A DNA stretch of 64,000 bases from a virus. Taxonomy: Duplodnaviria > Heunggongvirae > Uroviricota > Caudoviricetes. Shown piece after piece: positions 14,724-51,939 of the stretch. The position numbers were made by a program, and so were the translations under genes. The notes below the pieces were generated by a model. It saw only the letters and a program-made list of their open reading frames with translations. It was not told the origin of the DNA and did no database searches. The stretch is from IMG/VR virus record IMGVR_UViG_3300028888_000003, one strand, 5' to 3'. Position 1 is the stretch's first letter, and each line of letters opens with the position of its first letter.

Positions 14724-14753
14724 TTGATTTTTTTCAAAATTTGTGATATAATA
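14724..14753 (+). promoter_or_regulatory. class-B promoter TTGATTTTTTTCAAAATTTGTGATATAATATAT
   Basis: same consensus as minus-strand late promoters. Confidence 0.6.
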
Positions 14754-14802
14754 TATTTAGAAAATAAAAAAGAAAGAAAATTTGAAAGGGGAATTTTTCT
14801 AT

Positions 14803-15147
14803 ATGGATAACAAAACTAAAGCCAAGATACGCGCAGAGATGGTAGCGAAGCTCTTTGAAATGTGGAAGGCAGAGAACGACGACATCGGCATGATCACCTC
14901 GAACTCTTTTAACTTCCCCATAGTAGCACCCAACGGTGAAGAGGGCTGGGCTAAAATCACTCTCACCATCACCAACGATGAAGATGACATGGGTTACATG
15001 GAGCGCGAGCAGTACGCTGATAAAGTAAAAGAGGCAGCTGCGCGCAAAGCAAAGGCAGAAGCTGATAAAGCAGCCAAGATCAAGCGCGACGAAGAGCGTC
15101 GGGCGCAGAAGCTCGCCAAAGCAAATAAACCGGCAACCGAAAATTGA
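14803..15147 (+). CDS. hypothetical protein with K/A/E-rich tail; paralog of 9718..10053
   Basis: ATG 14803 after GAAAGGGGAATTTTTCTAT; ITSNSFNFPIVAPNGEEGW block. Confidence 0.65.
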   Translation: MDNKTKAKIRAEMVAKLFEMWKAENDDIGMITSNSFNFPIVAPNGEEGWAKITLTITNDEDDMGYMEREQYADKVKEAAARKAKAEADKAAKIKRDEERRAQKLAKANKPATEN

Positions 15148-15172
15148 TTTTTTTATAAATTTATAGTATAAT
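15144..15172 (+). promoter_or_regulatory. class-B promoter
   Basis: TTGATTTTTTTATAAATTTATAGTATAATATATATAG. Confidence 0.6.
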
Positions 15173-15180
15173 ATATATAG

Positions 15181-15325
15181 AAGGTGAGAGAAAAATCCTT
15201 CCTCAAATTGTAAGTATTCGCGCAGTTAGGTGTTGCTTAGAAAGCAATTTGAGAGTGGGCTTAGGGAGCTGGTTCTCCACTATAAATAACTGAACCGCCA
15301 CCTTTTCTTAAAAGTAAGAAATAAA
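15181..15325 (+). ncRNA. candidate class-B-driven non-coding RNA
   Basis: starts AAGGTGAGAGAAAAATCC like other class-B leaders but no ORF; ends before next promoter. Confidence 0.4.
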
Positions 15326-15327
15326 AA

Positions 15328-15357
15328 TTTGAAAAAGTTTTAAATTTCTGATATAAT
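15328..15357 (+). promoter_or_regulatory. class-B promoter
   Basis: TTGAAAAAGTTTTAAATTTCTGATATAATATATATAG. Confidence 0.6.
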
Positions 15358-15365
15358 ATATATAG

Positions 15366-15528
15366 AAAGTGAGAGAGAAATCTAAAACTTTCAAGGTCGC
15401 GCGGAGCGGCCTCCCGAGAAAGCCGGGTAGTTATAGGCTATTCGCCCGCCGTGGTTCCCTGCACTCCGCCCTTCCTTTCCATATATATTATAACAAGCCG
15501 GTTCTTATCAAAGAAATAAGAAAAGAAA
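15366..15528 (+). ncRNA. candidate structured non-coding RNA (GC-rich core)
   Basis: GCGGAG...CTCCGC and CCCG-AGAAAGC-CGGG stems; ORF-track 15369-15605 starts with GTG and has no RBS. Confidence 0.4.
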
Positions 15529-15530
15529 AA

Positions 15531-15560
15531 TTGATTTTTTCTAAAAAGTTTGTTATAATA
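15531..15560 (+). promoter_or_regulatory. class-B promoter
   Basis: TTGATTTTTTCTAAAAAGTTTGTTATAATATATATAG. Confidence 0.6.
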
Positions 15561-15620
15561 TATATAGAAAGTGAGAGAGAAATAAAAAGTAACTCGCACT
15601 TCTAAAAATAAAAAACTTTT

Positions 15621-15645
15621 GGGTCGTGACCTACCACGAGAAAGA
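15621..15645 (+). promoter_or_regulatory. conserved leader hairpin (stem TCGTG/CACGA, loop ACCTAC)
   Basis: compensatory changes relative to 6175 and 7337 copies. Confidence 0.5.
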
Positions 15646-15653
15646 GGAATATT

Positions 15654-15995
15654 ATGACTAACAGAGAATTCTACACCGCAGTTATCAACGCAAACGTAAA
15701 CGCTGAGCTTACCGAGTTCGCGCAGACCGCAATTGAGAAGCTCGACACTGCCAACGCTAAGAAAGCAGAGAAGCTCGCTGCTAAGAGAGCCGAAGAGCAG
15801 CCTATCTATGACGCTCTTGCCGCTGTTCTGACCGAAGAGCCGCAGACCGCTTCTGATCTCGCCGCTCAGGTTCCCGAGATTACTTCTGTTCAGAAAGCAA
15901 GCTCAATGCTTCGCAAGCTTGTTGATCTCGGCGTCGCAGTTTCTACTGACCTTAAGGTAAAGGGTAGAACTGCAAAGGGTTATGCGAAAGCGTAA
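15654..15995 (+). CDS. hypothetical protein; paralog of 11408..11800
   Basis: 113 aa; RBS AGAAAGAGGAATATTATG. Confidence 0.6.
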   Translation: MTNREFYTAVINANVNAELTEFAQTAIEKLDTANAKKAEKLAAKRAEEQPIYDALAAVLTEEPQTASDLAAQVPEITSVQKASSMLRKLVDLGVAVSTDLKVKGRTAKGYAKA

Positions 15996-16045
15996 TCCCT
16001 TCCCTACGGGTTAGCCTTTTTCAACGGAATCACATAAATAGACGA

Positions 16046-16080
16046 GAGAGTACAGCTTCGCTGTACTCTTTTGTCTTATG
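16046..16080. terminator. bidirectional terminator
   Basis: AGAGAGTACAGCTTCGCTGTACTCTTTTGTCTT. Confidence 0.6.
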
Positions 16081-16083
16081 TTG

Positions 16084-16204
16084 TTCTGCGCGACCGTCAT
16101 CTCGAGCGTTCATAAGCGTCACTCTTGTACGTACATAGGCGAGGTCGCCGCACAACTACAAATTTTAAACCCCTATATTTATATTTATATTTCCCCTTTA
16201 ATTA
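16084..16204 (-). ncRNA. candidate minus-strand non-coding RNA
   Basis: from minus class-B promoter 16210-16238 to terminator at 16046-16080; contains GGTCGCGCAGAA motif. Confidence 0.35.
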
Positions 16205-16209
16205 TAACA

Positions 16210-16238
16210 AAAATTTTAAAAAAAATCAAACTTTTTTC
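16210..16238 (-). promoter_or_regulatory. minus-strand class-B promoter
   Basis: rc TTGATTTTTTTTAAAATTTTTGTTATAAT. Confidence 0.5.
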
Positions 16239-16261
16239 GCAATTTTCCAGTAGTTTTTAGA

Positions 16262-16500
16262 AAAATTCTTATATTTTATCTACATATACTCGATTTTAAG
16301 GGCAATTTTTAGAAAATTCGTAGGGTTTTTCTCAAAAAAGTTATAAGTTTTACTAAATTTACCGAAAATTTACCATTTTTTTAGCGGTTTTATTCGGAAT
16401 TTTAGGAATTTTTGCCCGAAATTTTTCAAATTTTATCCGAAATTTTTAGAATTTTAAGAAAAATTTTAGATTTTTAAAATTTGCTTCATAGTGAAAATTT
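16262..16500. repeat. AT-rich degenerate tandem repeats (GAAATTTTT / CCGAAAATTT units)
   Basis: about 10 units; no ORFs. Confidence 0.55.
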
Positions 16501-16688
16501 GGCAGCAACCTAAAACTGCATTAAACGCCATCAATTCCCTTTAAACACCTTAACCCTCGAACGCTACTACCTCTGATAGTTCCAAAATTGACAGAGCCTT
16601 TCCACTCCTACCCAAGACCATTCAGTCGGCGAAACTGACCGTATGGCTCACGACGTTTTTCCCCTTTACGTTATAGTATATACTTATA

Positions 16689-16712
16689 AGTATTACTTAT
16701 ATGTATAATGTA
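16689..16712. repeat. TATACTTATAAGTATTACTTATAT direct repeat (copy 1; copy 2 at 16889-16912; palindromic core TACTTATAAGTA also at 17158)
   Basis: exact 24-bp duplication in gene-free region. Confidence 0.6.
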
Positions 16713-17295
16713 AACGTCTCCGACTCGAAATTCGGGGAGTAAGCCCCGTTTCGAATTAGTATGCTCACTACGTTCGCTTACGTTTATATATATGTATATG
16801 TAGATGTTGTTGTGATACGTTGGACTGCGCGACCACCATCGCCAGAAGTCATAACGGTTAGCTGCGCTGCCCCGTTACGTATATTTTATACTTATAAGTA
16901 TTACTTATATATTATACTTATACGTAATGGACGTATACGGCGCTTTCGGCTATCGCCGAAATCGCGGAGCGGAGCGCCCCGCTCGCTGCGTTCGCTGGAG
17001 AATTTAGACAAAAAAATGGAGCGCTTGAGCGCTCGCATTTTTCTGCAAAATTCACACAGCTCTTCTGCTTTTGGTTGTTAAGTTAGGAAGTGTTACGCTG
17101 TATCTTTACGTATATATTTTATTTATATATAATACGTATATATAATACGTATACGTAATACTTATAAGTTTTCCTTTTTGTATAAATGTGAACTTTTCTA
17201 AAAGGTTCGTATAGATTTTTCCGTCAAAATGGTAAAAATTTTTGGAATTTCTTTTACTTTGTTCTGCGCGACCATGATGGTTGATGGTGATTTAC

Positions 17296-17330
17296 CTAAA
17301 AATATAGGACAGAGTATAACTCTGTCCCGT
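17296..17330. terminator. bidirectional terminator at end of minus-strand late block
   Basis: GGACAGAGTATAACTCTGTCCCGTCTTTT. Confidence 0.6.
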
Positions 17331-17333
17331 CTT

Positions 17334-17567
17334 TTAGAAGTTATTTTCACGCTTTTCTACGACCTCGCGCAGAAGTGATTCCGGCAACTCAATAGGTCCA
17401 TCAACCCAAGCTTCAAGTTCAACACGACCTATTGCCTTTTCACCATAGTATTCACTCAACTGTTCCATAGCATCTCCAAAGCGCTCTGCATAAAGAAAAC
17501 CTGTTTTCACGTGTTGTGCATAATCAACTTCATCATAGTATTCAACTTTATAAGTAAAAGGATACAT
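17334..17567 (-). CDS. hypothetical acidic protein
   Basis: 77 aa, RBS AAGGAGGAATAAGATG. Confidence 0.55.
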   Translation of the reverse strand: MYPFTYKVEYYDEVDYAQHVKTGFLYAERFGDAMEQLSEYYGEKAIGRVELEAWVDGPIELPESLLREVVEKRENNF

Positions 17568-17578
17568 CTTATTCCTCC

Positions 17579-17902
17579 TTAATTATCTACTTCTATAAGT
17601 TCACTATCATACACATCTGTATCATAAATTTCCCAATCAGGGGCTTCAGCATAAATCATATCTCCAACCCAGTCTATAATTATATCAGTGAGACGATAGG
17701 CTTCACCAGTTTCCTTATCATAAATCATACTATCTTCCCAATCTGAAGCATATTGAAGAATATTGGCTATTGTATCATCAGACAAATCTTTAATATCTGA
17801 GTCTACAAAATTTTCTTCAAGGTATTTTCTCAGTTCATTTGTATCAATATTGTGAGTACGATAAGCAGCATATCTACCCCATTCTCTATAAGTAAGTTTC
17901 AT
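17579..17902 (-). CDS. hypothetical acidic protein
   Basis: 107 aa, RBS AGAGGAGAAATAATATG. Confidence 0.55.
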   Translation of the reverse strand: MKLTYREWGRYAAYRTHNIDTNELRKYLEENFVDSDIKDLSDDTIANILQYASDWEDSMIYDKETGEAYRLTDIIIDWVGDMIYAEAPDWEIYDTDVYDSELIEVDN

Positions 17903-17903
17903 A

Positions 17904-18689
17904 TTATTTCTCCTCTTCTTTTCTTGTATATAATATTTTTCTATGAGTATCTAACTGAACTACAATTCCAAAGTCTTTTCTTATTTGACGAATTTGATAA
18001 GGGATGCGGAAAGTACAATTATAATCTTCATCATATGCTTGATGGAAAATATGAAAAGCTATTCCCTCCCAATCCCACAGATAGCGTTCCTCTTTTTCTC
18101 TTTGCCAATTTTCGTAATAATTATATTTTAAAAGAAACTCTAATATCCAATTAGATTCATCTTCTCTATTTTCTTTACAGTAATCCATAAAATCCTTATA
18201 ACGAGAGTACCAAGGACTTAACCTAATTTGTTCTTCAACTCCAAACATCTTATCTTCTAAACCCACACAATATTCGGCACTCATATCACGAATGGCAATC
18301 TGTTTAAAGCCAATAGTAGCGACCTCTTTAAAAATTTTTGATGTATGGTACCTGCCACAATAACTTAACAGTTCATGTATTACAGAAGAGAATACAATTA
18401 CAGTCTTATCATAATCAATATTAAGAGGGTAAAGACCAGCAAGCATATCAACTACTGTAAAACCTTTTTCTGCTCCAAGCTCGCGCATACGAGGGTCATT
18501 ATCAATTCCTATATATCTAAACTGATTAGGATAGTAATATTCTAATGCTCTACCAAGAGCACAGTCGGCGCAACCGAAATCTATTATTGTGTTGATTTCA
18601 GGAAGAAGATTGTCAACAAACCAAAGTTTATCTTTAATACCGGCTTCCATTCGTTCATTATATACTTTATAGTTTTCAATTATAGGCAT
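17904..18689 (-). CDS. SAM-dependent methyltransferase
   Basis: motif I IIDFGCADCALG, motif II IGIDND; RBS AAGAAAGGAAG. Confidence 0.65.
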   Translation of the reverse strand: MPIIENYKVYNERMEAGIKDKLWFVDNLLPEINTIIDFGCADCALGRALEYYYPNQFRYIGIDNDPRMRELGAEKGFTVVDMLAGLYPLNIDYDKTVIVFSSVIHELLSYCGRYHTSKIFKEVATIGFKQIAIRDMSAEYCVGLEDKMFGVEEQIRLSPWYSRYKDFMDYCKENREDESNWILEFLLKYNYYENWQREKEERYLWDWEGIAFHIFHQAYDEDYNCTFRIPYQIRQIRKDFGIVVQLDTHRKILYTRKEEEK

Positions 18690-18722
18690 ATATTTTTACT
18701 TCCTTTCTTATCTTCTATAATT

Positions 18723-18751
18723 ATTATATCAAAATTTTCTAAAAAATTCAA
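18723..18751 (-). promoter_or_regulatory. class-B late promoter
   Basis: rc CTTGAATTTTTTAGAAAATTTTGATATAATAATTATAG. Confidence 0.6.
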
Positions 18752-19012
18752 GTTTTATTAGTTACCGAATTTACTACTGCGCGACCACCAAAGAAAAAGG
18801 TCATCAGACTATTATCTGATGACCACTAATTGGCTTCCACCTCTTTAACTCAGCCCCGTTGAAACTATTTTATCTGAGTGTTCTGTGCACACGGGGGCAC
18901 ATTTTATAGCCCATGCTTTTACGGCTTCGTATTGCCTAATTACGATAGGTTTCTCTTCCCAAAGGCGTCGACTCCTTACGAGGGAAGTAATCCTTGCCAA
19001 TTGTATTCAATT

Positions 19013-19261
19013 TTATTTCCTATCAAGCACTTTCTTAATAGCAACAAGTGCTCTGCCAGTTACATAGATTGCGGCGATTGAAAGGACAACCTCAAATATA
19101 CCAAGAAGGAAATGTCCTACTCCACCCCAAGCTGAAGCACAGGCTCCAACTGCAATAAAGTGTTTAATACCGTTAATTGCGTTTGTTAAATATGCCCAAC
19201 CAAATAGGGCAGTTATAAGTCCAAAGCCAAAATCCTTTAATGTGAGCAACAGTTTCTTCAT
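19013..19261 (-). CDS. small membrane protein (2-3 TM)
   Basis: 82 aa hydrophobic. Confidence 0.5.
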   Translation of the reverse strand: MKKLLLTLKDFGFGLITALFGWAYLTNAINGIKHFIAVGACASAWGGVGHFLLGIFEVVLSIAAIYVTGRALVAIKKVLDRK

Positions 19262-19277
19262 TTTAATCTCCTTTCAA

Positions 19278-19757
19278 TTAAACAATATCATTTACTGTAG
19301 GACTTCCAATTTCAAGACCAAAATAAATATAGTTATCAGCATCATAACCTTTATCTTTTTCATATTCACTATATTTTATTTCGTCTATAATATCATCAAG
19401 AAAAACAAGATAACTATGAGCGTGTTCCCACTCTTCAAGGTCTTCACGAATCTCTTTAATATAAGATTCATACTCATCAATCATTTCAAGTCTCTCTGAA
19501 AGAGAAGCTTCCATTTTCTTGATTTCCTCAATTCTTTTTTCATACTTTGCAATAGTCTGATTATCATAGTCTTTCATTTCTACTATACCATCTATTACAT
19601 TACTAATATCTTTTTTAGTAAGGGGTGAAATTTTTTCCCAAGGCACAGAGAAATGATTTTCACTAAAGGCTCTTGCTATTGCACTATTTCGACTATAAGT
19701 TCCAATAGGTATAAAATCTTCGCCTCTACGAATAAAAAATGAAGTATAGCAACTCAT
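19278..19757 (-). CDS. hypothetical protein with coiled-coil segment
   Basis: 159 aa; RBS AAAGAAAGGGGAATTATAATG. Confidence 0.55.
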   Translation of the reverse strand: MSCYTSFFIRRGEDFIPIGTYSRNSAIARAFSENHFSVPWEKISPLTKKDISNVIDGIVEMKDYDNQTIAKYEKRIEEIKKMEASLSERLEMIDEYESYIKEIREDLEEWEHAHSYLVFLDDIIDEIKYSEYEKDKGYDADNYIYFGLEIGSPTVNDIV

Positions 19758-19801
19758 TATAATTCCCCTTTCTTTTATCTCTTTCTTTATCTTACATATA
19801 T

Positions 19802-19830
19802 ATTATATCAAAATTTTCTGAAAAAATCAA
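19802..19830 (-). promoter_or_regulatory. class-B late promoter
   Basis: rc TTGATTTTTTCAGAAAATTTTGATATAATATATATG. Confidence 0.6.
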
Positions 19831-20240
19831 ATTTTATAATACTATGTAATATGGTTTTTCGTACTTCCGCAGATTTCCATACCTTGTCTTTATCGTTTCG
19901 GCATATGCCATACTGCCGCACGCACCACAAACACTTCTGCTCTAAGGCGGTTTTCTCCTGACTACCGCAAACCATCTTAGGGACTTTATTTTACCTTGTC
20001 GCCCTAAGCTTCAAGGGTACCTCGCCGTATGGCTGGCTAATTTGCTGCCTGCTTTTCAGGTGGCTTTTACCATATTAAAAATATAGTTCAGCAGGAGTCT
20101 TACCACCAAGGCTTACAGACTTCCGAGGGTGTAAAACCATAAAGGTTGCCCGAAGGACTAAAACTGACCTCATTCGTTTGAATAAATAAATTTTAGCATT
20201 ACCCATCTCACGCCACGTGGAGGCAACTTACTTGTGAGAC

Positions 20241-21119
20241 TCTAGGTGGAGAGATTTGAACTCCCGACCCTCTGGTCCAGAAAACAATGTTATACTTTAT
20301 CCCATTCTTCATTTGAATATTTTTTTATATCTGATTTTTTTCTTGGTAAACTATAAGCATCACACCATTTACGAATAGCAGCATCACTCACACTATATAA
20401 TTTACCAATTTCTGTAAAAGGCTTTTGTCTAATTAATTCTTTAAGTTGACTTCTTGAAGGTCTATCAGCAACTTTTCTTTGAAATATGTTGTGACAACTT
20501 ACACATCTTGCGCCTTCTTTATAAACCGGAGCACCACAATCAATACATTGATGAGAAGCTAAAGTACCCAATTTCTTAATTTTTATGGGTAGTTGTTCTT
20601 CAAAATCTGACTCTTGGTATTGAGATAAATGTCCTAAAATTTTTTCAACCAAATAATCTTCTGCCATATTTACATTAGGTGGAGTTTTATTTGTTTTAGG
20701 AGTAATTCGTAAACTTTTTGTAGTACTACATTCTTCAACTGGAATTAAATAAACATTATCTTCCCAACAAGTTGCAAAATAATCAATATCATTTGAAGTG
20801 TAATAATGTCGAGTAGTTTTCTGAGTATTTGTTGTAGAACTACAACAAGAAAACGTAATGGAGTTTCTATCATCGGCCCAATGTGACTTTTTACATTGAA
20901 TACGCAAAATTTCTTTACTCGTATCAACTAAAATATCATATTTAGCTTGATTTCCATATGGAACTGAGCATTCAAATCCCATAGTCATAAACTTCATAAT
21001 ACATTGCAGTTCTACAAGATTACCTTGTATCTGAGTTTTTTCCATTTTTCCTCCTCAGAAAAGGAAAAGTATAATTTGCTTTCCAAACCAGATGCTCTAC
21101 CAAACTGAGCCACACCTAG
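20241..21119 (-). tRNA. tRNA-Pro(UGG) interrupted in anticodon loop by ~805-bp intervening sequence (5' exon 21081-21119, 3' exon 20241-20276)
   Basis: exon1 CTAGGTGTGGCTCAGTTTGGTAGAGCATCTGGTTTGGAA + exon2 CCAGAGGGTCGGGAGTTCAAATCTCTCCACCTAGA fold into perfect cloverleaf (C1-G72 acceptor, anticodon TGG). Confidence 0.7.
20290..21045 (-). CDS. endonuclease-like protein (putative homing endonuclease) inside tRNA-Pro intervening sequence
   Basis: 251 aa; PD-(D/E)XK-like YDILVDTSKEILRIQCKK, CxxC...CxxC zinc ribbon, C-terminal HTH-like; RBS GAGGAGGAAAAATG. Confidence 0.55.
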   Translation of the reverse strand: MEKTQIQGNLVELQCIMKFMTMGFECSVPYGNQAKYDILVDTSKEILRIQCKKSHWADDRNSITFSCCSSTTNTQKTTRHYYTSNDIDYFATCWEDNVYLIPVEECSTTKSLRITPKTNKTPPNVNMAEDYLVEKILGHLSQYQESDFEEQLPIKIKKLGTLASHQCIDCGAPVYKEGARCVSCHNIFQRKVADRPSRSQLKELIRQKPFTEIGKLYSVSDAAIRKWCDAYSLPRKKSDIKKYSNEEWDKV

Positions 21120-21169
21120 ATAAATTGCGGCCGGCGATATTGGACTCATCCTCACGCCGTTAAGCCGCT

Positions 21170-21245
21170 TGGCAGAGGATACCCGACTCGAACGGATACT
21201 GTAACAGTCAAAGTGTTATGTGCTTACCAATTACACCAATCCTCT
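21170..21245 (-). tRNA. tRNA-Gln(UUG)
   Basis: AGAGGATTGGTGTAATTGGTAAGCACATAACACTTTGACTGTTACAGTATCCGTTCGAGTCGGGTATCCTCTGCCA; CCA encoded. Confidence 0.75.
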
Positions 21246-21448
21246 ATACTCGTGCGAGCGACCACCTAAAAGTTTGGACTCTCACCGTGTCTTTCGTTTT
21301 ATCTCGCATTATGGGCAGAATTTGAACCATTAACCCTGGGTCGAAGCAGTTTTATAACGACGCGTACTAAAACTTTTCTCATAAAAATACGCTACGGGAG
21401 GAATTACCGTTATTATACCGCTATTCTTAAACAGGTTTACGGCACCTC

Positions 21449-21522
21449 TGGCACCGGCTAAAGGAATTGCACCCCTATCTTCGCTTTTGGAGAGCGCTGT
21501 TCTACTGTTGAACTAAGCCGAT
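21449..21522 (-). tRNA. tRNA-Trp(CCA)
   Basis: acceptor ATCGGCT/AGCCGGT, anticodon loop CTCCAAA, CCA encoded; T-stem has two G.U pairs. Confidence 0.55.
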
Positions 21523-21783: not shown

Positions 21784-21857
21784 AGCAAATAAGGTGGGAG
21801 GAATTACCACTATTATCACGCTCGTTTCTGAATTTACAGCCTACGCTTCGCTACCTC

Positions 21858-22667: not shown

Positions 22668-22745
22668 TGGTAGGAGTGGTGGGACTTGAACCCACACACC
22701 TGTGAAGATAACGGATTTTCTTACTACTCTATGTTACCATAGCCG
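22668..22745 (-). tRNA. tRNA-like element (3' T-arm/acceptor/CCA recognisable, 5' half unresolved)
   Basis: GTGGGTTCAAGTCCCAC CACTCCT A CCA; no matching 5' acceptor strand found nearby. Confidence 0.3.
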
Positions 22746-23097
22746 CATCTCTGCGTTGTAGTCTGGACTATGTCTTCACCTTGTATTCATACTCTCTACA
22801 CGCACCCTTTGAACCATCAACTTACAGTCGGCTGGTAGGTGTCGCCTCACCTCAACTCCACAAATTTCCTCAAGAGTATAAATATTTAGGTGGGTGGTAT
22901 ATAGTCTCTACACATTTATGAATATTTGGTAAACGCGCCGAGGTACTGCCCCTCTAATTTTGTATTACCTACTTATGTTTCAGAGCATATGTAAAACACT
23001 TTCAGAGACGTAAGTCTTCCATCTATACTGGACGCGCCATATATTCAATTTAGCTCGGCGTTGTCCCCATAAGGATATTCGCCGAATTAGCCACCAT

Positions 23098-23730
23098 TCA
23101 CTCAGCGCTTTCGCTATTCTGAGTGCTCTTTTTTAAATGCATTATATTATATCGTTCAATTAATTCATATGCTCTATCATAATTTTTCCCCGCTGGAGTT
23201 AAATCTAATAGAATTAATGCTTGTCTAATTGACCGACTTTCTTGTAATGCCTGTACAAAATCTTCTTCTGGAACGGTACAATTTTGATTTTTTCTTGCAA
23301 AAGTAGGAGTATATGAATGACAATTAGGACATAACAACTATAAATTAGATAAATCATTATTACTTCTATTACCATCAATATGATGAACTTCTAAATTAAT
23401 AGGTTGTCCCAACCATTCACTTAATCCACAGTGCTCGCATTTTCTACCACGTAAAGCAATTAAAGGTACTGCTGTACTTTTACCATTTTTCTTTTTTGTA
23501 CCATTAGTAAAAGTATCATAATTATAATTTTCTTTATTCCAACCCTATCCTTTAAAATGTGAAGTATCTAAATTTAATTCTTCATACATTTTCTTTAAAG
23601 AAGCCATTGTGCCACCGCCATCAATGGCATATCCCAATTTTCGGGCAACTTCACGATTAGAATAAGAATCTTTTACAATTTCTGATAATTCTTCCCTTGA
23701 AAAATTTCTCCATTTTGCCTTATTACTCAT
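23098..23730 (-). CDS. HNH endonuclease with two in-frame TAG codons (read as sense)
   Basis: one reading frame: ...TSHFKG-TAG-WNKENY...CEHCGL...EVHHIDGNRSNNDLSNL-TAG-LLCPNCHSY...; canonical HNH motif is NLQLLC, implying TAG=Gln. Confidence 0.7.
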
Positions 23731-23940
23731 AATTAAAACCTCCTTTAGTTTCTAATTATAAGTAACTTTATTAGGCATACACTACAAATTTTTAATGCGT
23801 CTGCCAAAGTCCGTTGCGTCTGCCTATTCCGCCACACTCCCATATGTATAAAAGGTTATTACTACTGTCTAACTACTTACAGGATTCCCTATTATCCAAG
23901 CCTTTTATAAAAGTAATTTCTTTTCTCATTTACTATAATA

Positions 23941-23969
23941 ATTATAGCACAATTTTATAAAAATTTCAA
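23941..23969 (-). promoter_or_regulatory. class-B late promoter
   Basis: rc TTGAAATTTTTATAAAATTGTGCTATAAT. Confidence 0.55.
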
Positions 23970-24701: not shown

Positions 24702-24730
24702 ATTATATCAAAATTTTTAAAAAATTTCAA
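24702..24730 (-). promoter_or_regulatory. class-B late promoter
   Basis: rc TTGAAATTTTTTAAAAATTTTGATATAATATATATG. Confidence 0.6.
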
Positions 24731-26874: not shown

Positions 26875-26948
26875 TTCTCTCCCTCCTTAAAACAAATATT
26901 TTTCCATAAAAAAGTAAAGAAAAGAGTAGATTACTCTACTCTTCTCGT

Positions 26949-29128: not shown

Positions 29129-29157
29129 ATTATACTAAAATTTTTAGAAAAAATCAA
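29129..29157 (-). promoter_or_regulatory. class-B late promoter
   Basis: rc TTGATTTTTTCTAAAAATTTTAGTATAATATATTTAG. Confidence 0.6.
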
Positions 29158-31474: not shown

Positions 31475-31503
31475 ATTATACTATAAATTTATAAAAAAAT
31501 CAA
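31475..31503 (-). promoter_or_regulatory. class-B late promoter
   Basis: rc TTGATTTTTTTATAAATTTATAGTATAATATTATTAG. Confidence 0.6.
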
Positions 31504-35088: not shown

Positions 35089-35529
35089 TTAGTCTTCAGA
35101 AGATAATGATTTAAGAATTTTCTCATAATCATCATTTATAACTGCTTTGAAATAATGCGTACAATATGTTGAGTCAAAAGTATCTGTTATATGCTCTAAA
35201 AATAAACTGCTAAATCTTTCTTCCCAATCTTTTGCACCACAATATACATAGTTGGAACCTTCATCTTCATATCCCATACCACAATCACCACACCTTGTAT
35301 GAATATAAATAACATCTTGTCCAGCATATTTATTGAACACTTCAAATTCTTCATTATAATATTCATCTTGTTCTACAGGTGATTCAATTTTCATAAATCT
35401 TGCGCCACGAAGTCTTGGTATTTCACCATAGTTTTCTGCTAAATATTTACCTATCATTTCATCTGTTGACTGTAAATAAGCATATAAATCCATATTATTT
35501 CTCCTTTCGTACTTCTGCGCGACCACCAT
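35089..35529 (-). CDS. hypothetical protein
   Basis: 146 aa; RBS AAAGGAGAAATAATATG; GGTCGCGCAGAAGTACG motif in its 5' UTR. Confidence 0.55.
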   Translation of the reverse strand: MVVAQKYERRNNMDLYAYLQSTDEMIGKYLAENYGEIPRLRGARFMKIESPVEQDEYYNEEFEVFNKYAGQDVIYIHTRCGDCGMGYEDEGSNYVYCGAKDWEERFSSLFLEHITDTFDSTYCTHYFKAVINDDYEKILKSLSSED

Positions 35530-35628: not shown

Positions 35629-35657
35629 ATTATACTATAAATTTATAAAAAAATCAA
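35629..35657 (-). promoter_or_regulatory. class-B late promoter
   Basis: rc TTGATTTTTTTATAAATTTATAGTATAATTATATTAG. Confidence 0.6.
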
Positions 35658-36498: not shown

Positions 36499-36527
36499 TT
36501 CTATATATATTATATCAAAATTTTTTT
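36499..36527 (-). promoter_or_regulatory. class-B late promoter (TTGCAA -35)
   Basis: rc TTGCAAAATTAAAAAAATTTTGATATAATATATATAG. Confidence 0.55.
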
Positions 36528-36540
36528 AATTTTGCAAATT

Positions 36541-38121: not shown

Positions 38122-38196
38122 AAGTATACCTCCAAAAATCTATTTCTCCAATTAAAAGTAAAAAAGAGCAGACAACTGTCTACTCTTTCAACTATT

Positions 38197-38423: not shown

Positions 38424-38453
38424 ATTATAGCAGATTTTTTAGAATTTTTCAAA
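38424..38453 (-). promoter_or_regulatory. class-B late promoter
   Basis: rc TTGAAAAATTCTAAAAAATCTGCTATAATTATAAT. Confidence 0.55.
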
Positions 38454-44168: not shown

Positions 44169-44303
44169 TTTATCGCCTCCCTTTTAGTTTTTATATTGTA
44201 CGTTGTTCTGCGCGACCGCCATCGAGAATGGTTATCAGATTTTTTTGAAAAATCTTATGAGCGTCGTCCATCGAAGTCGCGCGGAAGTACGTATTTAAGA
44301 TTT

Positions 44304-45628: not shown

Positions 45629-45643
45629 GTTAATTCTCCTTTC

Positions 45644-46036: not shown

Positions 46037-46066
46037 AGCAATTTCTCCTTTTTATTTTCTAATAAA

Positions 46067-46095
46067 ATTATACTAAAAATTTCTAAAAATTTCAA
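46067..46095 (-). promoter_or_regulatory. class-B late promoter preceded by terminator + GGTCGCGCAGAAGTACG motif
   Basis: rc TTGAAATTTTTAGAAATTTTTAGTATAAT. Confidence 0.55.
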
Positions 46096-46167
46096 GTTTT
46101 ACGTACTTCTGCGCGACCGCCAAAAAAATCGCTCATGGCAGACACCATGAGCGACTCAAATTATTTC

Positions 46168-46475
46168 TGTTTTCTTTTTGTTGCGATATAACCCGCACCA
46201 AGCGCGCCACTAAGTGCCGCAAAGGCTCCGATTGCGCCAACAGAACCGGTATCAGGTACGGTATTATAATAATTAGTATTACCTCCCTAATTAGTATCTG
46301 TTGCGGTTGCATCAGCCACAGTAGCAGTTGCATCAGTCTTAGTTGCATCAGTTACAGTTGCATCAGTAATTGTTGCTGCCGCTGTATCTGTTGGAGTAGC
46401 ACCAATCGCATAGACCGTGTAACTAAAACTAAGTATAAAAGCAACTACTAATAATATTTTTAAAAAGGTCTTCAT
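46168..46475 (-). CDS. secreted/membrane-anchored Thr/Ala/Asp-rich protein (1 in-frame TAG)
   Basis: signal peptide, TDAT repeats, TAG at 46287, C-terminal hydrophobic segment + KRKQK. Confidence 0.4.
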
Positions 46476-46487
46476 ACTGTCACCTCC

Positions 46488-47321
46488 TTAATCTAGTAAG
46501 TCGGCATATGCGCTTGCCCGAGACCTCTCCGATCTTGGCAAATACACATATGCAAATAATTCCTTTCCACTCAATCTATCAACCATTTTCTCCATACCGC
46601 TATCTTTTTCAAAAATGGTCTTATCTGTTTGTCTACGGTCGCCCGCAAACCACAGTTGTGAGTCTTCACCAATTCTACCAATTAATAACTGGCACTGATG
46701 TGTCGTTAAATTCTCTGCTTCATCGCAAAATATAATCGACCTTCTAAAATCGCGTCCTCTCAAATAACCAAGCGGCGCAATTTCAAGTTCGTTTTTCTCA
46801 ATTAAAGTCCTAACTGCATCCATACTACCCAAATGATCCCCGATATTACCAGCCCAAGGTAACATTTTTTCAGTAGCAGTTCCTGGAAGACTACCAAGTG
46901 GAGTCGTATCTTTTAACTCAATATTATTTCTAACAAAAATTATCTTATCAATTCTATTCTTTTCAAGTGCTTCAAGCGCGTGCGCAATCATCAATAAGCT
47001 TTTACCACTACCATAGTTGCCCGCAAGTAACTTAATATCAACCGATTGATTTTGCAGCATATCAAAAGCAAATTCTTGCTCTAAATTTTTACTACGTAAT
47101 ACACCTAAGTGATATGTCTCAATTGGGCGCGACCGCAAGTGTCTAAATTCTCCGTCTTCCCAACATCTTTTATCAACAATATTTCCTTCAATATCTTCAA
47201 CTACAAAGTACTCGTTCTCGCGCGGTTCACGCACGATTGGCAGTTTCCCTTCTTGATAAAAGGTACTTAGTTCTTGGTCAGTACATTTAACAATACTATA
47301 ACCTTTGTACTCTTCCAACAC
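46488..47321 (-). CDS. PhoH-like ATPase
   Basis: Walker A GNYGSGKS; IFCDEAENLT; 277 aa. Confidence 0.65.
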   Translation of the reverse strand: MLEEYKGYSIVKCTDQELSTFYQEGKLPIVREPRENEYFVVEDIEGNIVDKRCWEDGEFRHLRSRPIETYHLGVLRSKNLEQEFAFDMLQNQSVDIKLLAGNYGSGKSLLMIAHALEALEKNRIDKIIFVRNNIELKDTTPLGSLPGTATEKMLPWAGNIGDHLGSMDAVRTLIEKNELEIAPLGYLRGRDFRRSIIFCDEAENLTTHQCQLLIGRIGEDSQLWFAGDRRQTDKTIFEKDSGMEKMVDRLSGKELFAYVYLPRSERSRASAYADLLD

Positions 47322-47332
47322 ACACCAACTCC

Positions 47333-47953
47333 TTAAAGCAAGACATCAATATCAGTAATAATCTCATCAACAACTCCGTTCTCCAGAGCTTCTGAAATTT
47401 TTACATACCAATCTCCTTGATTTAATTTTTCTTCAATTATTTCAGGTGAATAGTTAGTATTCTTCTTATAAAAACTAACTAATTCTTGAATTTGCTGTTC
47501 ATAGTCCTTCATAAAACTTTGAACTTGCTGGAAGTCACCGCCTACTCCCGATACGCTTCCCTTATGAAATACAAAAGTAGTATTCGGTAACGCGAATTTT
47601 TTGCTTCCGGCTATGAAAATCATTGACGCCGCCGAGGCGCAAGTCCCAAACGCATATGTATAAATAGGTGTCTTAGAAATATTAAATATTTCAATTAAAG
47701 TTTTCGCAACATCAAGCGAACCGCCGGGCGAGTCAATAAAAATTTTAATCGGTTTTCTTTCTTCTTTGTCTCTGTCTTCTCTATTCCAAGCTATAATATA
47801 CTGAACTAATTCAAGTGTATCATCAGTAATCTCAGAATCAATCCAATATGTGCGGTTTTCTAAATCCTTATAAAAGTTTACAAGGACTGGATCGGCCAAT
47901 TGAAGATTAGCTTCGCTGCTATCTCCAAGTAAAAATAAAAGGTCATTATCCAT
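47333..47953 (-). CDS. ClpP-like serine protease
   Basis: GxSxxS... ASAASMIF (Ser), FVFHKG (His) arrangement, 206 aa. Confidence 0.55.
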   Translation of the reverse strand: MDNDLLFLLGDSSEANLQLADPVLVNFYKDLENRTYWIDSEITDDTLELVQYIIAWNREDRDKEERKPIKIFIDSPGGSLDVAKTLIEIFNISKTPIYTYAFGTCASAASMIFIAGSKKFALPNTTFVFHKGSVSGVGGDFQQVQSFMKDYEQQIQELVSFYKKNTNYSPEIIEEKLNQGDWYVKISEALENGVVDEIITDIDVLL

Positions 47954-48067
47954 TTATTTGTCCTCCAATCTATTTTAGGAATTACTTCCTTATATAAGTA
48001 AAAAAATTACTTTTACTCTCTAATTAAAAAAGGCAGACTTTAAAGCCGTCTGCTGGGGCTTTTTGAC

Positions 48068-48400
48068 TTAAAAGATTCTATGCCAATCAAAAAGTTCATC
48101 GACAAGCTTTTTAATGTCGTAATCCTTTAGGTCTTCCGAAGTAGAATACGTAGCATGGAAGTAACCATAGTCTTTAATAAAATCATTTCTCAATGATTTA
48201 TAAGTCTTCTCCGCTTCAATCCAAGCTGTGTAAGCATCTTGGACTTCTTTCGCGCGGGCGGTCTTCTCTTCTTTCAACTTGAGTTGCTTATTTTTTGCAT
48301 CTTCAAGTTTCTGCAGATAAACCTTCTCTGCAGTGACACACTCTTCTTCTGTGTCGAAAGTCTTTTTGAGTTCTTCGGAATAGTACTTCATTTTCAACAT
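48068..48400 (-). CDS. hypothetical coiled-coil protein
   Basis: 110 aa. Confidence 0.5.
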   Translation of the reverse strand: MLKMKYYSEELKKTFDTEEECVTAEKVYLQKLEDAKNKQLKLKEEKTARAKEVQDAYTAWIEAEKTYKSLRNDFIKDYGYFHATYSTSEDLKDYDIKKLVDELFDWHRIF

Positions 48401-48610
48401 CTCCTATTATGTGAAAAATTTTTTTAATTAGCATTCCTTTCTGCTAATCTGGTACGGGAGACAAGACTCAAACTTGCACTATTACGGGTCTAAACCGTAT
48501 ATCTCTGTCAATTGGATTACTCCCGCATAAAAAAGTATGGCAGCCCCTGTGAGTGCTGCCCTCACTCCTGCGGTTTTAGAGACCGCCGTCCTAGCTGTTA
48601 GACGAAGGGG

Positions 48611-48810
48611 CATTATGTTTAATCCTCTATAAAAGCAAATTCTTGCGAGTCTTTTAACTGCTTATACTTATCTAAAGGAACTAATAACAAATTTCCCGTA
48701 TCAGCCATTACTACTTTAAAATTGTCTTCCCAATTCTACTCGTAGTTAATGTAAATACAAGTATGTGAATCGGCATATTTGCCGAGTTGTTGGATTAAAT
48801 CTATAACCTT
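48611..48810 (-). CDS. small protein with one in-frame TAG
   Basis: MKVIDLIQQLGKYADSHTCIYINYE-TAG-NWEDNF... Confidence 0.35.
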
Positions 48811-49110
48811 CATTCTGATACCCCAAAAATAAAAATAAAGCGGGATTTGTGTATAAAGTTTGGGAGGTGAAACTTTTACGGTGTCGTACCCGCACGAGGC
48901 TAGCCCTCACGACCTTTCACTATGGTAGAAAGTACCCTATATACGAGTGGGACTTCCTCTTGCTCAAGGAGTTATTCCACACTAATTACGATTTTAATTT
49001 TCTTAACAAGAAGGAGAAAACCGCATAAAACTCCAAAAGAACAAAATTGAGCAGATAATGTTCTAAAAGATAGTAAATAGAATAATTTCCTTTTCCTATT
49101 TACTATAATA

Positions 49111-49139
49111 ATTATACCAAAAATTTTGAAAAAAGTCAA
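49111..49139 (-). promoter_or_regulatory. class-B late promoter (TTGACT -35)
   Basis: rc TTGACTTTTTTCAAAATTTTTGGTATAATTATTATAG. Confidence 0.55.
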
Positions 49140-49858
49140 ATTCTAACTATTCCATCAATGCTAAGCGAAGTAATTTTTTTACCACCAGTTTCAATTTCGC
49201 AAGATTTATGAACGTGTCCACAAAACCACTCTTTAAAAGTAGCAATTTCTAAAATCTCATCTAATCTTTTCTCGCTATCTGCATAAATTGGATTGGGGTA
49301 GAGATTAGATTTTGCAATAAAGGTTGCGGGCGGGCAGTGAGTTAATATATAATCAACTTTGAAGTCGCGCACCTCTAAGTTTTTCTTTGCATTTTCAATT
49401 TCAGCATCACTTATAGTCTCTTCAGCCCACCAAATTGCCTCGCCATAATCTGCTTCATACTGCATACGCCATTCTTTATCGTGAGAATCAGCGCCACCAA
49501 TACAAAGAAAAGATTTTTCTTCTAACTGAACAATCTCGCCAGGCTGGATAACATAGATGCAGTCGCGCAGCTTCCACGTTTTAAAATCCCAGTCATTGCA
49601 AGTCTCAAGGTGATAATAACGCGGCCAGCAGTCATGATTACCAAGTATTGTAAAAAGGACTTTATCATTCTGTTTTAAAACCTCGTTTATATAATCAAGA
49701 GTACTTTCTTCAAATTTATCAGTTTTATTAGAAAACCATAAACCAAAATCTCCCAACTGAATACAGTATTTCTCTTGACTAAATTTAAAGAAATCAGATG
49801 GGTGCGCCCAATTTAATATCATATCAGTCTCAGCATGGATATCCGATAAAATCAGCAT
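49136..49858 (-). CDS. calcineurin-like metallophosphoesterase (second copy, distinct)
   Basis: LILSDIHAE, GDFG, GNHD motifs. Confidence 0.6.
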   Translation of the reverse strand: MLILSDIHAETDMILNWAHPSDFFKFSQEKYCIQLGDFGLWFSNKTDKFEESTLDYINEVLKQNDKVLFTILGNHDCWPRYYHLETCNDWDFKTWKLRDCIYVIQPGEIVQLEEKSFLCIGGADSHDKEWRMQYEADYGEAIWWAEETISDAEIENAKKNLEVRDFKVDYILTHCPPATFIAKSNLYPNPIYADSEKRLDEILEIATFKEWFCGHVHKSCEIETGGKKITSLSIDGIVRI

Positions 49859-50226
49859 TTAAACTCGCTCCTTTCTGTTTCTGTCTGATCGGTTTGACTA
49901 ATTATTAAATTACCAATTTTTGCAAGGACTTTAACTTGGTCAAATTCTTCTTGCGTGTCAATTTCTTTAAAAAGACGGTCGTCACAAGACACTATTTCCC
50001 CATCTTTATTAAATGAAGCAATTACAAAGCAATATTCTCTATTATTATTGGTATTAAGATAGAATTTAACTATATCAATTTCATGGGTGTTATAAGTGTG
50101 CTCACCCAAAAAAGTAGCAGTTTCAAGACCAAATTTTCCTTTTCTTGCTATTAACATATTAATCCTCCTCCCAATCAGTTTGCTTATATTCTTGTCTTTC
50201 GCGCCAGCCCGTATTATAAGGAACAA
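49852..50226 (-). CDS. hypothetical protein
   Basis: 124 aa. Confidence 0.5.
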   Translation of the reverse strand: MFLIIRAGAKDKNISKLIGRRINMLIARKGKFGLETATFLGEHTYNTHEIDIVKFYLNTNNNREYCFVIASFNKDGEIVSCDDRLFKEIDTQEEFDQVKVLAKIGNLIISQTDQTETERSEFKC

Positions 50227-50647
50227 TCATATTATTAACCATATCACAGCTTAACTTCATTAAATCTTTAATTGCTTGCTCTTTATCTGCTTCGGTTTCA
50301 GCAAAATCATAATCTGCCTGAATTGATGTAAGTATATCACATACATTACAGGAACCATAACCTATATAAGTAAGTAAATAATCATATTCCGCAGGCTGAT
50401 ATCTATTTGCTCTTGGAATTAAAAACATTAAAGTTCCTTGATATTCCCCATCATCAATTTTATGAATTTTTAAATAATCCCAGCCGCGATCAAAAGGGGT
50501 GGGATACTCACCATCATCAAGTATATACTTAACAGTATACATTAATATATCTTCATAACTATACTCGTATAAATGTTCGATAGTTCTAAAAAACTGTTCA
50601 AGTTTATCACAGTTTTGTCCCCATTTATCTCTACAATACTTAATCAT
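50159..50647 (-). CDS. hypothetical protein
   Basis: 162 aa. Confidence 0.5.
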   Translation of the reverse strand: MIKYCRDKWGQNCDKLEQFFRTIEHLYEYSYEDILMYTVKYILDDGEYPTPFDRGWDYLKIHKIDDGEYQGTLMFLIPRANRYQPAEYDYLLTYIGYGSCNVCDILTSIQADYDFAETEADKEQAIKDLMKLSCDMVNNMIVPYNTGWRERQEYKQTDWEED

Positions 50648-50677
50648 ACATATATACTCCTTTTATTTTCTATAATA

Positions 50678-50706
50678 ATTATACCATAAATTTTAAAAAA
50701 AGTCAA
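50678..50706 (-). promoter_or_regulatory. class-B late promoter
   Basis: rc TTGACTTTTTTTAAAATTTATGGTATAATTATTATAG. Confidence 0.55.
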
Positions 50707-50962
50707 ATTTAAAAAACAAAAGCCCAGAACATATAATGCTCTGGACTCCCGTTCAATTATTAGTGAGTAAGTAGCCAAATCGCATCTTTTAACGGACCAG
50801 CCATTTGATCGACCCACTGAACGCAGACATCAATGGCTTTATTAACAACTCCGTTATTAATTAACTTTTCGGCATATCCTAATAAGAGATCAAGAACAAT
50901 ACTTAAATCGCCCATTGGAATCACCCCTATATAATTATGTTCGGTTCCTTAACCTACTATAA

Positions 50963-50991
50963 ATAGTATAACAGAAATTTTTAAAAAAGTC
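50963..50991 (-). promoter_or_regulatory. class-B late promoter
   Basis: rc TTGACTTTTTTAAAAATTTCTGTTATACT. Confidence 0.5.
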
Positions 50992-51330
50992 AAATTTTAA
51001 GATTCAAATTTTCTCAGATTCCTGACCGCTTTTGCAATAAGTCTGCGATTTTCAACCGGCTTCTGCATTAATTTTGCAATTCTGTTTTCCCAATAAAGTT
51101 TGTCTCTTGTCATATCTCTTTTCTCCTTTTAATTTTTATATAAATTCTTTAAATTTTAACTGACCATTTATTTCGTTATCGGAAAATCCTATTTTAATAT
51201 AAGGTGTTTGCCCTTCTGACGCGGCTTCGAGCGCGAAGTCTACTGCCGCTTCAATTTCGTCTTCATTTAGCAACTCATCAACCTGAAGTTCACACATAAA
51301 ATTATCCATTTTAATTCTCCTTCTTATAAA

Positions 51331-51876
51331 TTAAAGTTTTAAGGCAAATTTTATAATTGGACTATCATAAGCATTTGTGCCACAATACCAAACTGGTCCA
51401 TCATTATCATCTCCATCACACATATGAATTGGACCGCCGCCATTTTTTTCATACCAATGACCATTTTCATAAAAGCGGAAATGGAAGTCTGAATGGATAT
51501 AATCATAACTATCTTCAGTACCGGCCCAATTGTCATCAAAATCACTTATAAGTTCAAAAAAGTAACGAAAATAAATTAAACGCTCTCCCTCTTTTAATTC
51601 TGATTTATCTCTAATTGTACGAAGATTTTTAAAGTCTTTTAAAATATGTTTGACAAATTTGTTTAAAAGGATATTATAAATTTGTTCCTTTAAATACCCA
51701 AGGTCAATATATCGTGCAATACTATCTTCAATCTCATCAACATCAACGCTATAAGGTTCATACCAAGAAAAGGTATTTAAAGCATAGCCGCCGCAATTGT
51801 ATTCAAAATCATCAGTATTATCGGAGTTGCGAGTTCCCTTGATATTATAATAATCTTGAGTTTCTGTAAGTGGCAT
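51331..51876 (-). CDS. hypothetical protein
   Basis: 181 aa. Confidence 0.5.
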   Translation of the reverse strand: MPLTETQDYYNIKGTRNSDNTDDFEYNCGGYALNTFSWYEPYSVDVDEIEDSIARYIDLGYLKEQIYNILLNKFVKHILKDFKNLRTIRDKSELKEGERLIYFRYFFELISDFDDNWAGTEDSYDYIHSDFHFRFYENGHWYEKNGGGPIHMCDGDDNDGPVWYCGTNAYDSPIIKFALKL

Positions 51877-51910
51877 CTTATCATTCCTTTCTCATTCATT
51901 TCTATAATAA

Positions 51911-51939
51911 TTATAGCAAAATTTTTAGAAAAATGCAAA
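51911..51939 (-). promoter_or_regulatory. class-B late promoter
   Basis: rc TTGCATTTTTCTAAAAATTTTGCTATAATTATTATAG. Confidence 0.55.

Follow-up and report, generated by a model that had tools for sequence, protein, structure and literature searches.

Promoter families that combine strong host-type hexamers with extended conservation are familiar from phages, among them T5 and the early classes of T4 and SPO1. In Bacillus and Clostridium, extended sigma-A promoters carry a TRTG motif in the -16 region, upstream A-tracts and A+T-rich flanks. The middle promoters of T4 replace the -35 element by a MotA box at -30, and the consensus of a late class is normally unlike a host promoter and is read by a phage sigma factor or polymerase, such as T4 gp55, SPO1 gp33/34 or SPbeta YonO. 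In SPO1, a member of the Herelleviridae, short operons are numerous and each carries a terminator and a strong sigma-A promoter; the switch to middle and late genes relies on SPO1's own sigma factors gp28 and gp33/34, and the promoters of these bear no resemblance to TTGA-17-TATAAT. In T5, the pre-early, early and late promoters are all read by E. coli sigma-70 holoenzyme, with the classes differing mainly in the discriminator, where early promoters carry ATATT and where a small phage protein modulates the contact with the polymerase (PMC7472727). A host-takeover module is named for SPO1 (PMC6873191), and recoded phage genes have been proposed to be late (10.1101/2021.08.26.457843). Here we analyze a 64,000-nucleotide stretch of the Caudoviricetes record IMGVR_UViG_3300028888_000003 (the window), in which a family of 18 promoters, class B, exists next to a second family, class A. 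In our reading class B is probably an early/middle promoter recognized by a primary-type sigma factor and distinguished by class-specific flanks, rather than the late class that an initial annotation of the sequence had seen in it.

The window belongs to a metagenomic contig of 139,084 bp (ena:ERZ27257205:k141_6637418; record position 79373 - x is window position x), and gene scans covered the window and the 9.5 kb adjoining it on its left, termed L115. All 20 promoter sites of the initial annotation are present, its minus-strand coordinates being the low (-10) ends with deviations of 0-2 nt; the site given as 36499 is real, but lies 10 nt below the true -10 end at 36509. Eighteen of them, 4 on the plus and 14 on the minus strand, form one tight family of about 60 nt with the consensus tTaAAAt-TTGA-n-tTTTTt-aa-AAAtTTtTG-n-TATAAT-attTaTAGAAa, followed by purines. 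A 60-nt position weight matrix (PWM, 45 bits) was trained on these sites and compared with a background of 20 random first-order Markov windows. The class-B sites score 47-66, the random windows reach at most 10.2, and elsewhere in the window three class-A sites alone exceed 30 (35-38), so that the scan yielded no further class-B site in the window. A pattern of the hexamers plus TG has 43 matches vs 1.7 expected. The 24-mer put forward earlier is right as a consensus, but taken literally it occurs with at most 3 mismatches at just 8 class-B sites and one class-A site; likewise, the supposed three plus-strand units are really four class-B sites in the window, with a fifth 797 bp to its left.

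The core of class B is that of a host promoter. TTG is found at -35 in 18 of 18 sites and TTGA in 16, with TTGC at 36537 and 51938; the spacer is 17 bp in every case, and the -10 element is TATAAT in 17 sites and TATACT in one. All sites have G at -14, preceded by T in 13 and by A in the other 5. By both sequence tests applied, this is a primary-sigma (sigma-70/sigma-A) promoter with an extended -10 element, and since families of this kind are well known in phages the promoter type is ordinary. A late-class consensus would be expected to differ from host promoters, whereas these hexamers are canonical, and neither a sigma factor nor a DxDGD polymerase was found in the window or L115. The suggestion of a dedicated phage sigma factor or appropriator is thus not supported, as TTGA, the 17-bp spacer, G at -14 and TATAAT are canonical and unlike the promoters of alternative phage sigma factors or of T4-type appropriation. 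Outside the hexamers, an A-tract lies at about -41 to -37, often fused with the T-tail of a preceding terminator, TTGA is followed by a run of five to six T, and the spacer carries an A4T4 block. The discriminator consists of A and T only until it ends in TAG, and contains ATATAT or TATTAT. Class B shows no evident symmetry of a binding site. The transcript starts with a purine and continues into a short unstructured purine-rich leader with a Shine-Dalgarno sequence. This purine-rich start, emphasized in the initial annotation, is real but not specific to the class, with a purine fraction of 0.81 in B vs 0.74 in A, and the exact AGAAAGTGAGAGAGAAA leader is limited to 4 sites of class B and one of class A. 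At 7 class-B sites the -10 element is only 30-33 nt away from the start codon, so that leader conservation there is largely the Shine-Dalgarno sequence. Similarly, part of the upstream T/A conservation is terminator tail, because about half of the sites directly abut a terminator-like hairpin.

Class A consists of 24 plus-strand promoters between 1412 and 13735 with the consensus TTGAC(A/T)aattaaaaa..TATGaTATAAT. It occupies 1.4-13.7 kb exclusively, with class B elsewhere, and class labels were assigned by this location and not by sequence. As evidenced by leave-one-out classification on non-hexamer columns, the division into two classes is real (42 of 42 correct; null mean 20.9, maximum 30), and the conservation beyond the hexamers extends, as had been claimed, over the upstream flank, spacer, discriminator and start region. 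Single sub-regions are nearly sufficient: the upstream 10 nt assign 40 of 42 sites correctly, -35 positions 5-6 and the spacer 39 each, and the 25 nt downstream of the -10 element 35. Hybrids do exist, site 4178 combining a class-A core with a class-B start and site 36537 having a class-A-like spacer. Both classes nevertheless share TTGA(C)-17-TGnTATAAT and differ in discriminator and flanks, the relationship seen among T5 promoters that are read by the same sigma factor. A and B do not form an early/late pair, and the sequences present no need for a new sigma factor; class B looks like a family of ordinary strong host-type promoters and not like the middle/late switch once envisaged. Most class-A -35 elements are preceded at 11-32 nt by a perfect palindrome, TTAGACGTnnnACGTCTAA, which has 20 copies between 1387 and 14221 (for example 1387, 1774, 2219 and 14207), occurs nowhere else in the window and is found in 12 copies in relatives' loci. 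With a T-run before and an A-run after it, TTAGACGTnnnACGTCTAA is an intrinsic terminator in neither direction, and it has the look of an operator bound by a dimeric DNA-binding protein.

The genes behind class B argue in the same direction. This phage reads TAG as sense in part of its genes (minus strand 23098-63999; L115 2759-8662), and many apparent intergenic gaps are coding sequence with in-frame TAG. Reading TAG as sense gives minus-strand open reading frames (ORFs) of at least 1886, 1061, 841, 526, 455, 437, 371 and 324 aa, each containing 2-20 TAGs; ORFs of these lengths are also present in the contig's public gene calls, and PHROG matches to tail and endolysin families run across in-frame TAGs. 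The recoded genes include tail-fibre-like ORFs (at least 1886, 1061 and 455 aa), an M23/SH3 endolysin (52414-53130), an intron HNH gene and the head operon. Each class-B copy, in contrast, opens a terminator-bounded unit of standard-code nucleic-acid or auxiliary genes, the tRNA array or a short unit lacking ORFs. Across the 12 protein-coding class-B units, 42 genes with 5118 codons are free of in-frame TAG, compared with 68 TAGs in 12 of the other 21 minus-strand genes (Fisher p=1e-7). Products of class-B units include an RNA ligase, two metallophosphatases, an isochorismatase-like protein, an SPFH protein, an AAA_33 kinase and many small proteins; PhoH and a ClpP-like gene form an adjacent unit without a class-B promoter. 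Past the last minus-strand site at 51910..51938, the region at 52.4-64 kb holds only recoded tail-fibre-like and endolysin genes. Class B is thus not located upstream of virion or lysis genes, and the proposal that it drives the late genes does not hold. As recoded genes have been proposed to be late and class-B units are free of TAG, class B would belong to the early/middle, standard-code part of the genome.

The promoters recur outside this genome. Searching IMG/VR with the exact degenerate class-B pattern returned 92 loci on contigs of up to 196 kb, judged from recurring sample identifiers to be rumen and gut metagenomes, and their flanks contain 221 distinct class-B-like promoters. The full extended consensus is kept in 190 of 374 matches to the hexamers only that were not used for ascertainment. 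DNA similarity of these relatives to the window is limited to the promoters, with a few genes about 69% identical. The family is hence conserved and not recently duplicated, with some 220 distinct copies in other phage contigs. Class-A-like clusters are found in relatives as well, for example with at least 9 promoters in locus L002, and because both classes recur in distant relatives the difference between them is probably functional. In 596 Gb of bacterial and archaeal genomes, no more than 20 loci match the same class-B pattern, and they all lie on contigs of metagenome-assembled genomes with conflicting taxa (Ruminococcus, Erysipelotrichaceae, Methanobrevibacter, Melainabacteria). Many of these loci hold several class-B-like promoters and several of the contigs measure 163-184 kb, which together with the inconsistent taxonomy suggests mis-binned phages.

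Taken together, class B would be the general early/middle promoter of this phage and of its uncultured gut and rumen relatives. Bacterial core RNA polymerase with a primary-type sigma factor, the sigma-A of the host, would read it, and the class-specific flanks would set strength and/or timing relative to class A, itself resembling a block of the host-takeover type. Small phage proteins acting on one and the same holoenzyme would provide any temporal switch, as happens in T5. The search for sigma- or AsiA-like genes suggested along with the initial annotation, extended to MotA-like and RNA polymerase genes, found none in the window or L115. Window proteins gave no Pfam or PHROG match to AsiA/MotA-type proteins, and small unassigned proteins are abundant. 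A YonO-like polymerase was discarded as a candidate: DxDGD is present in no long ORF of the window, and the lone match in L115 lies in a 603-aa gene of the TAG-rich structural operon and appears to be due to chance.

Several observations weigh against an ordinary sigma-A promoter with an early/middle role. The near-absence of the motif from bacterial genomes makes the flanks phage-specific, not simply a host optimum, and the conservation of discriminator and start across very diverged phages exceeds what sigma-A needs. Recognition by sigma-A is itself deduced from sequence alone, and the gene scans span the window and 9.5 kb of a 139-kb source contig. In the relatives, TAG density after class-B-like promoters is 1.79 vs 2.82 per 1000 codons elsewhere; a strong depletion there was therefore discarded as a general rule, the effect being weak and the loci short, early-centred and a mixture of recoded and non-recoded phages. 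Moreover, promoter type alone may not set timing, since the TAG-rich head operon (YonG/YonD/YonB-like genes with 10-13 in-frame TAGs) follows a sigma-A-like promoter of neither class, TTGACT-17-TGaTATAAT, which is located on the minus strand at L115 8713-8741, some 815-843 bp beyond the left end of the window. This promoter stands back to back with the plus-strand class-B promoter at L115 8760. Late timing of the head operon may come from translational control by recoding and not from the type of promoter.

An alternative is that class B is a middle class dependent on a phage co-factor from class-A units, an activator or a small RNA polymerase-binding protein, with sigma-A still reading the hexamers. 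Its target would be the AAAAT/T-run near -35, the A4T4 spacer or the ATATATAG discriminator, and although we find this explanation unlikely overall, it is the most serious competitor. Four independent sub-regions beyond the hexamers separate A from B, the class-specific features are phage-specific and retained in distant relatives, and gpT5.026 of T5 does work on the contact between RNA polymerase and discriminator (PMC7472727). A possible co-factor is encoded by one of two paralog pairs that, as initially noted, are divided between the classes: 14803-15147 (B) and 9718-10053 (A) with 48% identity (E=4e-25), and 15654-15995 (B) and 11408-11800 (A) with 28% identity (E=6e-9). For the latter pair AlphaFold predicts a long helix and a winged helix (2 sequences, predicted local distance difference test 90), and the model retrieves winged-helix domains from the PDB with weak scores. 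With homologues in 15 loci of relatives, this early gene family is shared more widely than any other in the sample, and its members usually follow a class-B-like promoter and a conserved hairpin in the 5'-untranslated region (5'-UTR). As a candidate regulator the pair might act on the promoter classes or on the AGACGT palindrome, and we put forward the hypothesis that this family is a better candidate for class-specific control than the sigma factor discussed below. Nevertheless, near-consensus -35, TG and -10 elements should fire unaided, class B lacks an evident symmetry for binding, the winged-helix assignment comes from a two-sequence model with weak Foldseek and Pfam scores, and nothing links the protein to class-B sites.

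That sigma factor, a compact primary-like protein of 286 aa, would in a further scenario replace host sigma-A after host shut-off and read class B. It was detected by tblastn with the C-terminal half of E. coli RpoD in two lineages of relatives with class-B-like promoters (L039 3690-4550; also L007, L021, L080, L083 and L118-L124; contigs of 156-196 kb in IMG/VR). The protein lacks region 1.1, matches regions 2-4 of RpoD with 49-53% identity over the full query length and, in comparison with RpoD, presumably retains the residues that contact -35, -10 and TG. While these residues would enable it to read class B, they would not let it tell class A from B, so that the existence of two classes would be left unexplained. 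Its gene is located behind a class-B-like promoter, which host enzyme with sigma-A must hence fire first; most other sigma-bearing phage loci are without class-B-like promoters, and no such gene is present in the window or L115. We thus regard this replacement as improbable. Slightly less credit still is due to the proposal that A and B are functionally equal. They would be terminator-promoter cassettes of two lineages, which duplication or module exchange has spread, and the class-A block would be an acquired module. The spatial separation, the hybrids at 4178 and 36537 and the cassette-like abutment of half of the class-B sites to terminators would fit, but both consensus types persist at 25-65% protein identity with almost no DNA identity beyond the promoters, indicating selection on each. 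In a more far-reaching reading class B would be the dedicated signal of a standard-code 'pre-suppression' programme, its flanks read by the winged-helix family or the compact sigma factor, in the order A, B and then recoded genes behind a third motif described below. Promoter class and genetic code would in that case jointly time infection, although we rate the idea as rather doubtful, between the dependence on a phage co-factor and the replacement of sigma-A. The early/middle promoter read by a primary-type sigma factor thus remains the reading that we prefer.

On the plus strand, class-B promoters lie at 14724..14752 (PWM 56.8), driving 14803-15147; at 15144..15172 (58.1), where TAG replaces TG with G retained at -14; at 15329..15357 (54.9); and at 15531..15559 (57.6), with a 94-nt leader containing the conserved hairpin ahead of the winged-helix-like gene 15654-15995. 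The second and third of these precede ORF-less units of about 150 nt and about 170 nt, the latter rich in G+C; structured RNAs were considered for both and dismissed, the fold z-scores of -1.7 and -1.6 being unconvincing. All others are on the minus strand. The promoter at 18723..18751 (PWM 66.2) precedes genes 18689-17904, 17902-17579 and 17567-17334 without in-frame TAG, the one at 19802..19830 (60.4) genes 19757-19278 and 19261-19013, and 23941..23969 (61.0) is at the head of the tRNA array. At 24702..24730 (60.8), right after terminator 24772-24750, genes 24646-24287 and 24272-23976 follow, and 29129..29157 (57.8) controls six TAG-free genes including metallophosphatase 28900-28334. The site at 31475..31503 (55.2), after terminator 31531-31514, serves a unit that includes the isochorismatase-like gene and RNA ligase 30322-29201, and that at 35629..35657 (52.1), after terminator 35691-35656, a unit of 12 TAG-free genes of which SPFH 32434-31541 is the last. 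The hybrid with the class-A-like spacer is located at 36509..36537 (58.5; gene 36402-35692). At 38424..38452 (47.1), again after a terminator, a 64-aa gene (38391-38197) is separated by terminator 38189-38162 from the TAG-rich gene 38121-36541. Further upstream, 46067..46095 (56.0) precedes gene 46036-45644 and the AAA_33 kinase-like 45628-45185, and 49111..49139 (58.3) precedes small ORFs, tRNA-Leu(UAG) 48450-48526 and gene 48391-48068. The promoter at 50678..50706 (63.0), after terminator 50754-50714, heads three TAG-free genes including metallophosphatase 49858-49136; 50965..50993 (55.3) has TATACT at -10 and a short downstream unit, and 51910..51938 (55.0), the most upstream minus-strand site, has TTGCAT at -35 and precedes 51876-51331 and small genes.

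Two further minus-strand sites, at 14613..14641 and 16201..16229, share only the -35 and spacer half with class B; their full PWM scores are below 30, their transcripts begin with AAAGGGGA, and the fold z-scores are -3.1 and -4.8, respectively. The start region of the former is AAAGGGGATATATA, and a third half-motif site is found at 14316. The initial annotation had these promoters, the second listed at 16210, drive antisense RNAs, but no gene is evident opposite either of them. The transcript from 16201..16229 extends to a bidirectional terminator at 16040-16076, 3' of the stop codon 15993-15995 of gene 15654-15995, and 14613..14641 is directed into non-coding, repeat-rich, iteron-like DNA. 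As both transcripts thus cross non-coding repeats or head for a shared terminator, the antisense label is unsupported.

The hairpin in the 5'-UTR, GGGT-stem-(A/G)CC(T/G/A)AC-stem'-AGAAAGRRG, is placed directly 5' of the Shine-Dalgarno sequence at 15624-15650, 6168-6195 and 7332-7358 of the window and in the relatives L042, L043, L013, L026 and L071. The genes that follow it are those of the winged-helix-like family and two of class A, and its stems covary (TCGTG/CACGA, TTGCG/CGCAG, TGACG/CGTCA, TGGTG/CACCA). The hairpin might serve as a translational operator or as a site of processing.

Recoded units begin after terminators, and 5-6 of them have a third motif, (T)TACTTATAATT(G/A)G(G/A)A, upstream of the Shine-Dalgarno sequence at a distance of a few to about 35 nt (minus strand, 58288-58302, ~47987-48001, 38147-38161, ~26903-26917, 23751-23765 and ~45080). 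Its degenerate form has 10 matches in relatives, all just before a Shine-Dalgarno sequence and ATG, compared with a mean of 0.27 for column-shuffled patterns. The motif is a candidate late signal and might be a promoter used by a different polymerase, a site with a link to read-through or an element of the RNA. If it acted as a -10 element, transcripts starting 7 nt further on would be almost leaderless in some relatives, where the motif lies so close to the Shine-Dalgarno sequence. The window's tRNAs, 8 standard ones and 2 with introns, do not include a suppressor tRNA-CUA. The small gene after PhoH, 46161-46475 on the minus strand, crosses one TAG into a C-terminal segment with PDTG, a hydrophobic stretch and KRKQK that looks like a cell-wall sorting signal.

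In overall layout, the window (34% G+C) has about 27 short plus-strand genes at 1-14.2 kb, a largely non-coding region with abundant iteron-like repeats at 14.3-17.3 kb and minus-strand transcription from 17.3 to 64 kb. The non-coding zone where the strands converge holds tandem repeats with periods of 8/16, 13, 21 and 26 nt and an (AT)15 tract at 14340-14610 and 16230-17170. It is flanked by promoters facing both outward and inward, and the zone looks like a replication origin or packaging region. A different repeat, GGTCGCGCAGAAGTACG, has 7 copies vs 0.02 expected (16079-16095, 17257-17273, 18770-18786, 35508-35524, 44201-44217, 44275-44291 and 46102-46118; also L115 ~9070-9150). It forms the 3' arm of long imperfect intergenic hairpins, some just upstream of class-B promoters and others upstream of ribosome-binding sites.

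The tRNA array has the order intron-split Leu(UAA), Met, Glu, Phe, Asn, Gly, Trp, Gln and intron-split Ser(GGA). On the minus strand, tRNA-Leu(UAA) at 22668-23841 contains a 1087-nt intron at the classical anticodon position, with an HNH gene that has 2 in-frame TAGs, and tRNA-Ser(GGA) at 20240-21120 contains an 803-nt intron with a PD-(D/E)XK gene. The stretch 22713-22780, within the 3' part of the former intron and the exon, is 88-91% identical in many relatives. Rfam returned only tRNAs at gathering scores and no match to a group I intron model in E-value mode; a sub-threshold match to a hepatitis delta virus-like ribozyme (RF02682, 31 bits, E=0.01) is located at 20184-20240 on the minus strand. 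Spacers of the form GAGG...GGTAATTCCTCCC directly follow tRNA genes, with similar ones at ~21787-21857 and ~21380-21448, and are reminiscent of the theta ribozymes that lie beside tRNAs in recoded gut phages (PMC10879173).

No near-identical phage was found in INPHARED by megablast of 10 kb and tblastn of one 463-aa ORF. The closest cultured relatives are large siphoviruses of Bacillus, Lactococcus and Enterococcus (27-36% protein identity), the head genes immediately left of the window match Pfam YonB, YonD_N and YonG_N, and the style of promoters and Shine-Dalgarno sequences points to a Bacillota-type host. For uncultured large gut and rumen phages of Bacillota, the 60-nt class-B signature can be used to annotate early regions. 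The clean split between class-B units and TAG-recoded units is the most useful by-product of the analysis, as a promoter map set apart from the recoded genes is an independent handle, obtained from sequence only, on the notion of standard code early and recoded late.

In comparison with described systems, class B resembles T4 middle promoters in its extended -10 and conserved upstream element, but keeping TTGA at the canonical -35 position with a 17-bp spacer separates it from promoters read by sigma appropriation. Gram-positive sigma-A promoters share with it the G at -14, the TG at -15/-14, the A-tract upstream of -35 and the A+T-rich spacer, although the full 60-nt pattern is confined to phage contigs. 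The layout of the class-A block, and that of class B as cassettes, is like the host-takeover module of SPO1, whose gp28 or gp33/34-type sigma factors were not seen here. As in TAG-recoded (code 15) gut phages, in-frame TAG is concentrated in genes for virion and lysis proteins and for an intron endonuclease, with none in genes of early type, the pattern proposed in 10.1101/2021.08.26.457843. Phass-1, the nearest published recoded gut phage (PMC10607447) and a distant relative (head protein 29.5% identical), differs in having no class-B promoters in its first 50 kb, its annotation being fragmentary; the word 'promoter' is absent from 10.1101/2021.08.26.457843, and the split between class B and recoded genes is described here, for this genome only. 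The closest analogue is T5, in spite of the Bacillota-type host inferred here, the recoding of TAG and the lack of an identified gpT5.026 homologue. Both genomes have very strong promoters with canonical hexamers and class-specific conservation beyond them, both have a block of short single-promoter units adjoining a long tRNA-bearing block, and the A+T-only discriminator of class B with ATATAT or TATTAT has its counterpart in the ATATT of T5 early promoters.

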